DNA of 52,881 nt, taken from assembly GCA_042577285.1 (NCBI GenBank), contig JBHPDM010000004.1, positions 1 to 52,881 of the forward strand. The letters run 5' to 3'. A model generated the notes under the pieces. It saw nothing but the letters and a program-made list of their open reading frames with translations. It made no database searches and had not been told where the DNA came from. The DNA is from Candidatus Omnitrophota bacterium (GTDB lineage: Bacteria > Omnitrophota > Gorgyraeia > Gygaellales > Profunditerraquicolaceae). Shown in pieces: positions 9,575 to 11,455 of the stretch; position 1 is the stretch's first letter; each line of letters opens with the position of its first letter. The position numbers were made by a program, and so were the translations under genes.

Positions 9575-10085
9575 CTCTGATCAGCTTTATTATTTGCGCG
9601 GATCTCTCTCTTATCGAATCTATCAGCGCGCTCGATGATATAGTCGCGCCGCTGATCGCCTCTACGCCTGAAAGCTGTGCCGCATCTCTTTCCTTAAACT
9701 GTTCCGTAAATCCAGGTTCAGTAACCCGGGAACCTAAACCAGGGGTCTCATTCTGACTCAATACCTTTATAGCTATGACCTTGCCACCCTTAGTCATCCC
9801 TACCATCGTTTCTATCACGCTGGAGTACCCCACAGCTTTCGCCTTGAAGGCTACTCCCGCAAGATCCCCCTTCTCGTCGTATGCCTTATAATAGACTAAA
9901 CCCTCTGCCTTAATTTCCTCAAAACGCCCTGCCTGCGGCACTACCTCTTTCAGGCTCTCCTCTTCTTCAGCCCTCGCCTGGGCGATGATCCTGGGTTTAG
10001 TCAAAAGATCTACGCCGCTTAAAAGGCCGGCAGAAATAACGCAGATTATCCCCAGGATAAAAGCATAACGAAGTATCTCCCTCAT
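9564..10085 (-). CDS. rnfG: Rnf complex subunit G
   Basis: N-terminal TM, ETPGLG and SGATISS FMN-binding motif. Confidence 0.93.
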   Translation of the reverse strand: MREILRYAFILGIICVISAGLLSGVDLLTKPRIIAQARAEEEESLKEVVPQAGRFEEIKAEGLVYYKAYDEKGDLAGVAFKAKAVGYSSVIETMVGMTKGGKVIAIKVLSQNETPGLGSRVTEPGFTEQFKERDAAQLSGVEAISGATISSSALIDSIRERSAQIIKLIRDGR

Positions 10086-11455
10086 CTTGCCGCCTCCAGC
10101 TTCGCTCTCTTTATTGACTGGACTAGATTCCTGTTTGCCGGGCAGACATAATTACATACCCCGCATTCAATGCAATCTAAAACTGAATCGTCTTTTGCCT
10201 GCGCCCAAAGCTCTTTCTCGCAAGCCAAATTCAAAAGACACGGCATCAGGCCCGCCGGACAATCTCTGACACAGGCGCCGCAGCGGATACAGGCCTCTTC
10301 TTCGTTTAGCGCGGCCTCTCTTTTGTTCAACAGGATAATACCGCTTGTAGTCTTTATCACCGGCACCGCATCCGTGCATTGCGCTATGCCCATCATCGGC
10401 CCACCGACCACAATTTTGGCCGGCTGATCCTTCAGGGGGCCGCAATGCCCGATTAACTCTCTTATCGGGGTACCTATCCTTGCCAGAATATTCTTCGGGC
10501 TTGATAGGCAGCTGCCGCTAACAGTCACAATCCGCTCGTACAGAGGTTTATTAAGATAAACCGCCTCGTAAACCGCAAAAGCCGTGGCTATGTTGTGCAC
10601 CACTACGCCGACGTCAAAGGGGAGCTTTCCGGAAGGGACCTCTCTGCCCAAGATATTCTTTATTAATTGTTTCTCTCCACCCTGGGGATACATGGATTTT
10701 AATATCCGTATTTCGTATCCCGCCTCTCCCGAGCGCAGCCGAGGGATATCTTGTATCTTGCTTTGGAAGGCCTTGATCGCCCCGGGCTTGTTATCCTCGA
10801 TCGCGATATACACCTGTTTTACGCCTAAACATCTTACTATCAGACCGACAGCTGAGATGATTTCGCTGGTTTTCTCAAGCATCAGGCAGTAATCGGCAGT
10901 CAGATACGGCTCGCACTCCGCACCGTTAACGATCAAAGAATCTACCGGCTTAGGCGGCTTGAGTTTTATGTGCGTAGGAAATCCCGCTCCCCCCATCCCT
11001 ACGATCCCGGCATCACCTACGATACCACGGATATCTTCGGGCCTTAACTTATCTATTTCGGTCTGCGCTCTGCTTGTCCCGCGAAGTCCCGAGCTAAACG
11101 AGGGAAGCGAAGCCGAGGGATGGTCTGTGGTCTGCCTGTCCTGAGCGGAGCCGAAGGATGGTCTATTCTCTCCATCGCCATTTATGACTATTGCCTTACA
11201 ACGGCCCAGCAGAGGATGCGGATGATCCCTTAAGCCCGTGACCTTTCCGGATATCGAGGCATGGATCGGAGCAAGGACATGGGCCTGGCAAGATGCGATC
11301 TTCTGCCCCAGGGATACTTGGTCTCCGACCCGGACTTGCGGTATGCAGGCCTTTCCCAGATGCTGGCTTAAAGGGATGTAAGCGATCTTTGGAGGCGCAA
11401 ATCTCTCTATGGGCAGGCCTCCCGTAAGATGTTTATGCTCCCTTAACTTGATCAT
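10082..11455 (-). CDS. rnfC: Rnf complex subunit C with in-frame palindromic insertions
   Basis: AGIVGMGGAGFPT, NGAECEPY, YPQGGEKQL and two C-terminal 4Fe-4S motifs. Confidence 0.95.
   Translation of the reverse strand: MIKLREHKHLTGGLPIERFAPPKIAYIPLSQHLGKACIPQVRVGDQVSLGQKIASCQAHVLAPIHASISGKVTGLRDHPHPLLGRCKAIVINGDGENRPSFGSAQDRQTTDHPSASLPSFSSGLRGTSRAQTEIDKLRPEDIRGIVGDAGIVGMGGAGFPTHIKLKPPKPVDSLIVNGAECEPYLTADYCLMLEKTSEIISAVGLIVRCLGVKQVYIAIEDNKPGAIKAFQSKIQDIPRLRSGEAGYEIRILKSMYPQGGEKQLIKNILGREVPSGKLPFDVGVVVHNIATAFAVYEAVYLNKPLYERIVTVSGSCLSSPKNILARIGTPIRELIGHCGPLKDQPAKIVVGGPMMGIAQCTDAVPVIKTTSGIILLNKREAALNEEEACIRCGACVRDCPAGLMPCLLNLACEKELWAQAKDDSVLDCIECGVCNYVCPANRNLVQSIKRAKLEAAR
10728..10746. repeat. 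Short palindromic element CCCGAGCGCAGCCGAGGGA inside rnfC (translated IPRLRSG)
   Basis: Same family as the elements at 11078-11158. Confidence 0.75.
11078..11165. repeat. Composite of nested short palindromic elements and TGGTCT(G/A) heptamers inside rnfC
   Basis: CCCG[24-nt insert]AGCGAAGCCGAGGGA at 11078-11120; heptamers at 11121, 11128 and 11159; CCTGTCCTGAGCGGAGCCGAAGGA at 11135-11158. Confidence 0.75.

Follow-up and report, generated by a model that had tools for sequence, protein, structure and literature searches.

Copies of a probable small hairpin repeat element in two predicted loops of RnfC from an uncultured Omnitrophota bacterium

The rnfC locus and its two variable loops

The window is the whole stretch of 52,881 nucleotides that was analysed (contig JBHPDM010000004.1, Candidatus Omnitrophota bacterium). 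On its minus strand, positions 10082-11455 encode RnfC (rnfC, rsxC; 457 aa), as identified from the open reading frame, the Pfam domains and the names RnfC/RsxC carried by the Omnitrophota homologues. Pfam places RnfC_N at aa 2-96 and Complex1_51K at aa 146-297, together with an SLBB domain and 2x[4Fe-4S] (E-values 6e-51 to 3e-10). The protein matches two solved RnfC structures, 7ZC6_C (E = 2e-104) and 9ERI_C, and FMN_bind, RnfD and Rnf-Nqr genes lie downstream, i.e., both the domains and the rnfCDGEA(B) operon place it in the RnfC/RsxC family. The host gene is an essential respiratory gene of an uncultured Omnitrophota bacterium. Across 121 RnfC sequences, indels of at least 3 aa are confined to aa 90-130 (site 1) and aa 233-247 (site 2). 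Both sites are predicted to be disordered loops: in the predicted structure, residues 96-125 and 240-243 have pLDDT values under 50. Both are also gaps against the solved RnfC structures. The initial annotation had regarded the repeat-bearing segments as insertions in two tolerant loops and proposed an orthologue alignment as the check; that alignment, the structural gaps and the pLDDT values all bear this out. About 75-80% of the RnfC orthologues are free of inserts, and site 2 is 23 aa long here against a modal 15 in the 121 orthologues. The closest RnfC after that of a genome of the same genus (G001) is only 65% identical. A search of genome contigs for related loci found mostly distant RnfC genes without the insert.

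The pattern CCYGAGCGNAGCCGARGGA is matched exactly where it was first noticed, at 10728-10746 (CCCGAGCGCAGCCGAGGGA) and 11140-11158 (CCTGAGCGGAGCCGAAGGA); dinucleotide shuffles gave a mean of 0.12 matches, with two or more in 0/100 shuffles. All of the features below are read on the plus strand. At site 2, the hairpin TCCC-GAGCGCAGCCGA-GGGA (10727-10746, exact motif) is antisense to rnfC and encodes PRLRSG(E) within Complex1_51K, between helix 224-235 and strand 246-252, where the insert is a 7-residue gap against 7ZC6 and 9ERI. Site 1 holds two units. The outer hairpin of unit 1 (11075-11123) reads TGTCCC-G and then, after an interruption between core bases 1 and 2, AGCGAAGCCGA-GGGATG. The split copy at 11078-11120 consists of CCCG (11078-11081), the insert CGAAGTCCCGAGCTAAACGAGGGA (11082-11105) and AGCGAAGCCGAGGGA (11106-11120), and excision of the 24 nt, which had been suspected to interrupt this copy, restores TGTCCCGAGCGAAGCCGAGGGATG, identical to a copy on another contig of this genome (G000:C18:7240-7263). 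The nested 24-nt insert is itself a variant hairpin with an 11-nt core, CGAAG-TCCC-GAGCTAAACGA-GGGA, and its placement is unambiguous because neither junction shares a base. Unit 2 (11134-11164), GCCTGTCCT-GAGCGGAGCCGA-AGGATGGTCT, has a 7-bp stem including two G-T pairs. Translation confirms that the frame is kept and that peptides such as PRLRSG and PSFGSAQD are added to the protein. A 24-nt unit at 11135-11158 had been proposed; the segment that the DNA alignment shows here and not in the same-genus genome is instead 27 nt long (11143-11169, encoding NRPSFGSAQ), or alternatively 11141-11167, since a CT repeat at both edges leaves a 2-nt ambiguity.

Between the two units of site 1 lies the heptamer pair TGGTCTG-TGGTCT (11121-11133), found elsewhere only at C18:7267-7279. 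These two are the only TGGTCT-N-TGGTCT pairs in the genome, and both adjoin a hairpin, as parts of a composite unit TGGTCTRTGGTCTGCCTGTCCY-core-RGGATGSTCT. TGGTCT indeed follows directly after both site-1 copies (11121, 11159), as had been observed; the target preference read from this is not supported, as TGGTCT alone is not enriched in the genome (563 observed versus ~609 expected) and belongs to the composite unit. In other genomes the hairpin is surrounded by 7-8-mers of another sequence, e.g., repeats of GGTGACTT in G002 and of TGTGGAC in G029. Since the pairs occur only beside the element and other genomes differ, the heptamers travel with the unit.

A conserved core in a variable stem and its distribution

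The element, hereafter mini-hairpin, has at its center a conserved 12-nt core, GAGCGNAGYCGA, enclosed by a variable stem of 3-14 bp whose arms covary. It had been described as palindromic; its true form in rnfC is a stem of 3-7 bp around a core that is not palindromic, and elsewhere the stem reaches 14 bp. Units measure 18-27 nt and doublets 45-54 nt. Unique core matches number 56, of which 48 have a stem of at least 3 bp, the criterion by which the 48 were selected for analysis. At stem position 1 these have TA (36) or CG (12), so that the covarying T-A/C-G pair first noticed in rnfC is real and general across the stemmed matches. Stem pairs seen covarying are CCT/AGG, CCC/GGG, GGT/ACC, GCT/AGC and ACT/AGT; the CCT/AGG form can be written d(CCT-GAGCGAAGTCGA-AGG). 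Within the core, positions 4 and 8 covary (CG 39, TA 6, TG 2, CA 1), and the core may fold with two G.A pairs, a G-C pair, a C-G pair closing a GNA triloop, and one bulged pyrimidine. In ViennaRNA DNA folding, the rnfC copies (stems of 4-7 bp) do not fold more stably than shuffled sequences (z +0.5 to +2), so the support for the hairpin comes from covariation and not from energy; the intergenic clusters fold very stably (z -5.8 and -3.6). Stem mismatches of the G.T (2) and A.C (3) types are equally rare, with no bias, and therefore no strand of action can be named.

The pattern CCYGAGYGNARYCGARGG is present in 104 of 301 Omnitrophota genomes and in 13 of 31 relatives, with the reversed control pattern in 0 of either set. 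Copy number in the Omnitrophota set is 0-22 per genome, a low figure unlike the burst of a classical MITE, and as such a point against a mobile element. In addition, 101 IMG/VR viral contigs of 36-73% GC contain one version of it as an exact 18-mer, where about 1 contig would be expected by chance on our rough estimate. Of the copies examined, about half are in frame within long ORFs with Pfam domains, and the host genes include those for ArgRS, a MiaB-like enzyme, HflX, WaaA, TsaD, TGT and DegT. A family dispersed in coding and intergenic DNA, as initially supposed, is what the genome-wide counts bear out; the supposition would have fallen had the motif been confined to rnfC, and it recurs across the genome and the phylum. 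Intragenic copies have both orientations and different frames, and one DNA motif yields at least six kinds of peptide (PERSRR, SRAKSRD, PSAVEG, PSTSLR, PRLRSG, SFDSAQD), i.e., conservation is at the DNA level rather than the peptide level. The copies are often inverted doublets or sit inside short 7-8-mer direct repeats. The copy at C21:18609 is the tip of a 23S rRNA helix, and a similar hairpin, CCCCGAGCGTAAGCGAGGGG, is found in 23S rRNA. An Rfam scan (E <= 1) of six motif or near-match loci other than rnfC returned rRNA and tRNA and no hairpin family. There is in addition a long form of the hairpin, essentially all copies of which are intergenic; its sole match in an ORF is a chance resemblance to an HD-GYP motif. 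The exact element string was not found in the literature searched, and a search of the Omnitrophota literature returned no paper on such repeats.

Gain, loss and nesting among relatives

The rnfC genes of this genome and G001 align with 94% mean column identity, indel columns included, and differ by in-frame indels of 27 and 24 nt. The 27-nt difference may be either a gain here or a loss in G001. The 24-nt difference is an extra mini-hairpin at site 2 of G001 (TGGTTCGACTTCGCTCACCACAAG), of a subfamily with a GGT...ACC stem, located at the apex of the site-2 copy. Unit 1 of site 1 shows the same nested state in G001, i.e., in two independent assemblies. Relative to G001, there are three further insertions. 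One of 99 nt keeps the frame of a dCTP-deaminase-like ORF and has a repeat of TCGGC at its junction; another, of 149 nt, lies at the 3' end of dxr and has a repeat of ATTGAT; the third, of 73 nt, has a repeat of TTTA. Such filled and empty sites within one genus show recent gain or loss. Insert length modulo 3, which had been suggested as a check, separates the events: mid-gene events are all multiples of 3 (24, 24, 27, 45 and 99 nt) and those at gene ends or in intergenic DNA are not (149 and 73 nt). The orthologue of the C18 copy was not seen in G001, an assembly that is 65% complete and from which this region is absent.

The genome L082 has a 45-nt doublet inside the loop of an element that is intact in L083 and L084, and L085, an independent lineage, has a different repeat of 32-45 nt at both RnfC sites, with a tandem duplication at site 1. 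The nested insertion first suspected in rnfC is accordingly seen at 11082-11105, at G001 site 2 and in L082. Junction repeats measure 0, 1, 2, 4, 5 or 6 nt; because this length varies, there is no fixed target-site duplication. These comparisons show that copies come and go over the time that separates species of one genus and can land inside one another.

Origin, possible movement and likeness to known repeats

We consider it likely, with a probability of about 70%, that the segments in rnfC represent copies of a repeat element that is very small and non-autonomous and consists of the 12-nt core and a variable stem. The proposal of a non-autonomous mobile DNA that recurs in the same tolerant loops is largely supported, apart from the target preference, the energy of the local stems and the mobiliser. 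That the resemblance is due to chance or to the assembly is hardly credible; short stems without significant folding energy speak for it, but the shuffles and reversed-pattern controls, at about 0, refute this reading, and the identical nested state was recovered from two independent assemblies. Another account does without transposition. The two RnfC loops would be unconstrained linkers in which short GC-rich sequences appear and spread through local slippage, through duplication or gene conversion within the gene, and through deletion, the rnfC copies being copies only of each other and G001 having lost 27 nt. Unit 2 indeed resembles unit 1, 38 nt away (82% over 28 nt), the minority base C at core position 9 is common to the rnfC copies, site 1 of L085 contains a tandem duplication, and a 2-nt repeat delimits the 27-nt difference. 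The left arm GCCTGTCCT that G001 retains belongs to the unit, as at C18, which makes a deletion in G001 plausible. We nevertheless find this account as a whole unlikely, as the same core with different stems is found in unrelated genes and intergenic DNA of 104/301 genomes, G001 gained a different subfamily (GGT...ACC stem) in the site-2 copy, and three more filled/empty sites are at unrelated loci. Local copying probably contributes, yet it is not the whole story.

The hairpin may otherwise be a selected functional cis element, i.e., a protein-binding, RNA-processing or DNA-structural signal, or its peptides may serve as functional RnfC linkers. A core conserved at low copy number across the phylum and beyond, the great stability of the intergenic clusters and the similar hairpin in 23S rRNA are in line with selection. 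We hold this explanation to be rather improbable, since copies inside genes vary in orientation and frame, so that neither a peptide nor an mRNA structure is conserved; presence varies between genomes of the same genus, most RnfC orthologues do without the insert, and the Rfam scan outside rnfC had no corresponding match.

Taking the segments as copies of a small repeat element, selection within genes would let only those in-frame copies survive that fall in tolerant disordered loops. If RnfC has exactly two such loops, different Omnitrophota lineages would for that reason have come to hold small repeats of their own at the same two positions. The rnfC copies may also have been copied locally between the two loops, as their shared minority C at core position 9 suggests; the C18 copy has this variant too. 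All resolvable junctions but one, that of the nested 24-nt insert, have 1-6 nt of identity between insert end and target, and on this ground we favor a copy-and-paste movement via single-stranded DNA with microhomology. It may proceed by template switching of replication at hairpins or through a structure-specific nuclease or transposase that acts in trans. That the core is conserved across the phylum and beyond argues for some protein reading it.

A mobiliser gene flanked by the motif, of the RAYT/IS200 or GIY-YIG type as had been envisaged, was not found among the RAYT-like, IS200-like and small GIY-YIG genes examined. The RAYT-like Y1 transposase gene of this genome (C31) is flanked by inverted repeats of a separate family with 63 copies, GGGACGCTCTTTTTGC, and was rejected as the mobiliser for now. 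As for the IS200-like genes of relatives, neither mini nor long hairpins lie within 1.5 kb of four strong Y1 genes. Across 31 genomes, the presence or absence of the motif does not clearly follow that of Y1 or small GIY-YIG genes; in ten motif-rich genomes, a hairpin lies within 1.5 kb at only 3 of the 27 loci with a small GIY-YIG gene, and G029 has 10 motif copies and no small GIY-YIG gene. One small GIY-YIG gene here, C1:43143, is bracketed by long-form hairpins with a CCCGAG...CGAGGG signature (G000:C1:42.7-43.7 kb), and the local small GIY-YIG nucleases resemble the UPF0213 structures 1ZG2 and 1YWL. The link of the element to these nucleases is weak. No parent IS was identified.

The closest likeness in behavior is to the Rickettsia palindromic elements (RPE; Ogata et al. 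2000, 2002), which are palindromic repeats of ~100-150 bp inserted in frame in unrelated housekeeping genes, with about half of the copies in ORFs, at fold-compatible positions, an unknown mobiliser, and one conserved peptide in one frame for each family (PMC10969869). Mini-hairpins are likewise in frame inside unrelated protein-coding genes, with about half of the copies in ORFs, and the comparison drawn at the outset is apt in this respect. They differ from RPE in their size of 18-27 nt, in having at least six peptides, different frames and both orientations, in a conserved loop with variable stems, and in the phylum; the two are compared by behavior, not sequence. REP/REPIN-RAYT sequences are short hairpin repeats, often inverted doublets that fold into one long hairpin; REPs are extragenic, flank the RAYT gene and form clusters by insertion into or beside existing copies (PMC3116915). 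Mini-hairpins also form inverted doublets able to make one long hairpin (the C9 doublet); unlike REPs, about half of them are intragenic, and the RAYT-like gene here is flanked by its own repeats and not by the mini-hairpin. Ssn GIY-YIG nucleases, stand-alone proteins of ~90 aa, read dispersed NTS/SRM hairpin repeats as single-stranded DNA, and NTS repeats are rarely intragenic (2%) (PMC11893778). The bracketed gene C1:43143 is reminiscent of this system. The published SRM pattern, however, has 8 matches here versus 8 in the reversed genome, none overlapping the core and none in rnfC.

The SDR repeats of Nostoc and other cyanobacteria, said to have been described by Elhai et al. in Genome Res in 2008, are reportedly 21-27 nt long and share a secondary structure supported by compensatory changes. 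They are said to lie often within tandem heptamers or inside other repeats, and to occupy some orthologous sites while missing from others. Mini-hairpins have units of 24/27 nt, covariation in stem and core, tandem heptamers (TGGTCTN x2 in G000) and nesting, and are likened to SDR by description. They are from a different phylum, with a sequence set apart by description rather than direct comparison, their core extends beyond one lineage (viral contigs of 36-73% GC), and in-frame copies in essential genes are frequent. Double-hairpin elements of fungal mitochondria were reportedly described as mobile by Paquin, Laforest and Lang in 2000; these and the yeast var1 GC clusters are small, GC-rich and tolerated in coding and variable rRNA regions of AT-richer genomes. 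Compared by description, they differ from the mini-hairpin in being organellar and larger (26-79 bp), with unrelated sequences. Unlike a classical MITE, the mini-hairpin has no fixed-length target-site duplication and no identified parent IS with matching terminal inverted repeats. In our rating it resembles RPE, SDR and REPIN in kind.

To our knowledge, in-frame "selfish DNA" in essential proteins has so far been treated as a peculiarity of Rickettsia. RPE-like behavior is now seen in an unrelated uncultured phylum. The element there is ~5 times smaller; it is found repeatedly in the same two loops of one respiratory enzyme, and also in enzymes of tRNA modification, translation and the envelope. 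The tag CCYGAGYGNARYCGARGG finds such insertions and flags odd metagenome peptides (PERSRR, PSTSLR, PRLRSG), and the analysis provides a map of insertion-tolerant RnfC loops and a set of filled/empty sites from which insertion rules, and eventually the enzyme, can be derived. The family may extend far beyond Omnitrophota, because the core occurs in viral contigs of very different base composition. Speculatively, a pan-bacterial mobile system that is guided by DNA structure and has so far escaped description could have the 12-nt core as its minimal recognition module, a reading that we hold only tentatively. A trans-acting ssDNA-hairpin enzyme, possibly an unrecognised protein or a stand-alone GIY-YIG nuclease of the UPF0213 type, would then copy mini-hairpins into other hairpin loops and into sites that match the end of the element over 4-6 nt. 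If this is true, small genomes such as those of Omnitrophota would routinely obtain from it new surface-loop peptides in essential proteins, and even gene fusions.

Copies in rnfC and anatomy of the element

The rnfC gene lies at 10082-11455 on the minus strand of the window, which is contig C4 of the Omnitrophota MAG studied (G000; 1.25 Mb, 62 contigs, 48% GC), and encodes a 457-aa protein with the full set of RnfC domains. The initial annotation claimed three copies of one small repeat in this gene, here called the mini-hairpin, and all three were found: exact motif matches at 10728-10746 and 11140-11158, and a third copy at 11078-11120 in which CCCG (11078-11081) is separated by a 24-nt insert (11082-11105) from AGCGAAGCCGAGGGA (11106-11120). 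Dinucleotide shuffles gave a mean of 0.12 matches to the initial pattern, with two or more matches in 0 of 100. The claimed split also holds, since removal of the 24 nt restores TGTCCCGAGCGAAGCCGAGGGATG, letter-identical to the copy at 7240-7263 of contig C18. This C18 copy and the unit at 11121-11164 also have their flanks in common, TGGTCTRTGGTCTGCCTGTCCY on the left and RGGATGSTCT on the right.

We collected 56 unique core matches from G000 and 37 loci of relatives and analysed the 48 with a stem of at least 3 bp. The 12-nt core GAGCGNAGYCGA is constant across these copies, and the flanking stem, 3 to 14 bp long, is variable and covarying: position 1 is TA in 36 and CG in 12, position 2 CG in 43 and GC in 5, and position 3 CG in 40, GC in 6 and AT in 2. 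Core positions 4 and 8 covary as well (CG 39, TA 6, TG 2, CA 1), a pattern consistent with a GNA triloop closed by their C-G pair and with a bulge at position 9; the core includes GCGNAGC, which we take to be the known, very stable DNA mini-hairpin. G.T and A.C mismatches in the stem are equally rare and therefore do not reveal which strand is the acting one. The term "palindromic" is only loosely true of the rnfC copies, because nearest-neighbour folding favours them no more than shuffles (z +0.5 to +2); intergenic mini-hairpin doublets are strongly favoured (z -3.6 and -5.8). A hairpin in the 23S rRNA gene (C21, 18609-18628; CCCC-GAGCGTAAGCGA-GGGG), forming a helix tip a few bases longer than the Rfam consensus, has the same GA/GA-plus-loop design as the element, which may reflect either coincidence or an insertion.

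Two loops of RnfC

Among 121 Omnitrophota RnfC proteins, indels of at least 3 aa are confined to aa 90-130 and aa 233-247 (query numbering), except for one sequence with three extra residues at its N terminus. The modal lengths of these segments are 23 and 15 aa; in the query they are 47 and 23. When compared with the solved chains 7ZC6_C and 9ERI_C, query residues 97-132 are unaligned and a 7-residue gap falls at PRLRSGE. The AlphaFold2 model has pLDDT below 50 at residues 96-125 and 240-243, both predicted as coil linking secondary-structure elements. Alignment and model together agree with the earlier claim of insertion in tolerant loops, referred to here as site 1 (about 11075-11169) and site 2 (about 10727-10746).

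Inserts are present at site 1 in roughly one-fifth of the orthologues and at site 2 in about one-quarter, and the insert peptides reveal several repeat families. Peptides of the mini-hairpin family are LTINPERSRGIE, PSTALRAG, TPRLRSGQAG and PSASLG, and the rnfC DNA of three relatives' loci (L082, L083, L084) contains mini-hairpin cores in both orientations. The rnfC of another Omnitrophota genome (L085) has a distinct 32-45-nt repeat, AAGGTCAGTGCGCAAGCCTCCCCGAAGGGGAC, as a tandem pair at site 1 (2308-2384) and a single copy at site 2 (2685-2729), 96% identical, and is thus an independent lineage repeating the pattern of one family in both loops. A second recurrent insert at both loops encodes CLPAGRQAG, ACRPGR or CLSGRQAK (P0005, P0014, P0019, P0043, P0072, P0079, P0096, P0109 and other orthologues); as read from the peptides, it is probably a GC-rich palindrome of the CCTGCC..GGCAGG kind.

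Gain, loss and distribution

The same-genus genome G001 (GCA_042570405.1) has an RnfC 92% identical to the query, and its DNA here is a close match apart from the indels (94% mean column identity, indels included); the two genes differ by two indels, both in frame. At site 2, G001 has 24 nt more, TGGTTCGACTTCGCTCACCACAAG, at the hairpin apex, which is a mini-hairpin of another subfamily with a GGT...ACC stem. At site 1 the window has 27 nt more (11143-11169, each edge carrying a CT repeat); G001 keeps the left arm GCCTGTCCT, part of the unit as found at C18, and gain in the window and deletion in G001 are therefore equally likely explanations. Three more element-bearing G001 insertions have empty sites in G000: an in-frame one of 99 nt within a dCTP-deaminase-like ORF (junction repeat TCGGC); one of 149 nt, five codons upstream of the dxr stop (ATTGAT); and one of 73 nt in a region that is either non-coding or N-terminal (TTTA). 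L082 has a 45-nt reverse-plus-forward doublet in the loop of an element intact in L083 and L084, which, with the window's 24-nt insert and the G001 apex, bears out the nesting first proposed. Every mid-gene event has a length that is a multiple of three and the remaining events do not, which is the prediction of a selective filter.

At several junctions the repeated bases are the end of the element's own terminal arm (e.g., AGGATTGAT, recurring in L103 and L132), which points to microhomology between element end and target, not to a fixed target-site duplication. A target preference for TGGTCT, hinted at earlier, finds no support: TGGTCT-N-TGGTCT occurs twice in G000, each time beside a hairpin, TGGTCT alone is not enriched there, and the mini-hairpin lies between GGTGACTT repeats in three genes of one relative (G002) and between TGTGGAC repeats in another (G029). 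Because the TGGTCT pair is confined to hairpin copies, TGGTCT alone is unenriched and other genomes' repeats differ, we regard the flank repeats as parts of a composite unit and not a genomic target. Short direct repeats are reported to form part of a composite unit in cyanobacterial SDRs.

G000 has 7 matches to the relaxed 18-mer CCYGAGYGNARYCGARGG, which is also present in 13 of the 31 relatives and 104 of the 301 phylum genomes (0-22 copies each), both within genes and between them; the reversed pattern gave zero matches in G000, the 31 relatives or the 301 genomes. The exact 18-mer CCTGAGCGAAGTCGAAGG is found on 101 viral or proviral IMG/VR contigs (L136-L236; 36-73% GC, varied stems), and the family therefore extends well beyond Omnitrophota. 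High-GC copies there are often CCGTTC-GCCCT-core-AGGGC. About half of the relatives' copies examined lie within long ORFs; both orientations are seen there, and the frames differ. Hosts include arginyl-tRNA synthetase, MiaB-like methylthiotransferase, HflX, Kdo transferase, TsaD, tRNA-guanine transglycosylase and DegT aminotransferase.

Two further copies in G000 are worth recording. A 679-aa ORF on C18 (6274-8313; L088, 1274-3313) consists of two complete GT9 heptosyltransferase units with the mini-hairpin and heptamers (ASLGFARDRQTIDQ) exactly where these units meet; the element may have joined two neighbouring genes in a single reading frame. On C30 (9373-9460), a tRNA gene has the mini-hairpin ATCC-TTCGATTTCACTC-AGGAT upstream of it, and ahead of this hairpin stand 13 nt that duplicate the tRNA 5' end, GGGCCATTAGCTC; G001 shares the arrangement.

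Candidate mobilisers and known systems

The suggestion of a motif-flanked mobiliser was not supported for the RAYT-like gene, and for small GIY-YIG genes a general link was not confirmed. G000 encodes one RAYT-like Y1 transposase of about 160 aa (C31, 2600-3240), and its gene lies between the arms of a perfect 23-nt inverted repeat, AAAAGGGACGCTCTTTTTGCTAA. The genome contains 63 copies of the 16-mer GGGACGCTCTTTTTGC from this repeat, most of them in inverted pairs spaced by about 78 nt. We provisionally rejected this transposase as the mobiliser on account of this separate REPIN-like family; gene and repeats together resemble an Omnitrophota REPIN-RAYT system that is distinct from the rnfC element. 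A UPF0213-like 91-aa GIY-YIG gene (C1, 42700-43700), between tRNA genes and beside tRNA-Met, is bracketed by a longer hairpin, CCCGAG-N24-CGAGGG, with a 41-bp tandem array on both sides. Searching CCYGAG-N(4-70)-CGARGG gave 70 matches in G000 and 6 in the reversed genome (34 and 2 when an inner stem of 2 bp or more is required). About 30-35 of the 70 are 36-nt long-form hairpins with a variable inner stem and a loop resembling AGCTATTAAT, often inverted pairs and essentially all intergenic (e.g., C9, 16616-16691; C42, 1616-1691; C3, 64073-64147), and at C9 and C32 they adjoin mini-hairpin doublets. In ten motif-rich genomes, a hairpin lies within 1.5 kb of only 3 of the 27 small GIY-YIG loci, G029 has 10 motif copies and lacks a small GIY-YIG gene, and across 31 genomes the motif showed no clear presence/absence correlation with Y1 or small GIY-YIG genes. 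The mini-hairpin did not match the SRM pattern published for the Ssn system.

The reading of in-frame, nested, non-autonomous small elements in tolerant RnfC loops is largely supported. Cyanobacterial SDRs may be counted among the closest known things in behaviour. The same holds for the Rickettsia palindromic elements, RPEs, as proposed at the outset (PMC10969869), and for REPINs (PMC3116915). Our literature search found no description of the mini-hairpin, and an earlier one may exist. The element differs from RPEs, SDRs and REPINs in size, and is set apart by its design of conserved core and variable stem, its frequent residence in essential genes and the breadth of its distribution.
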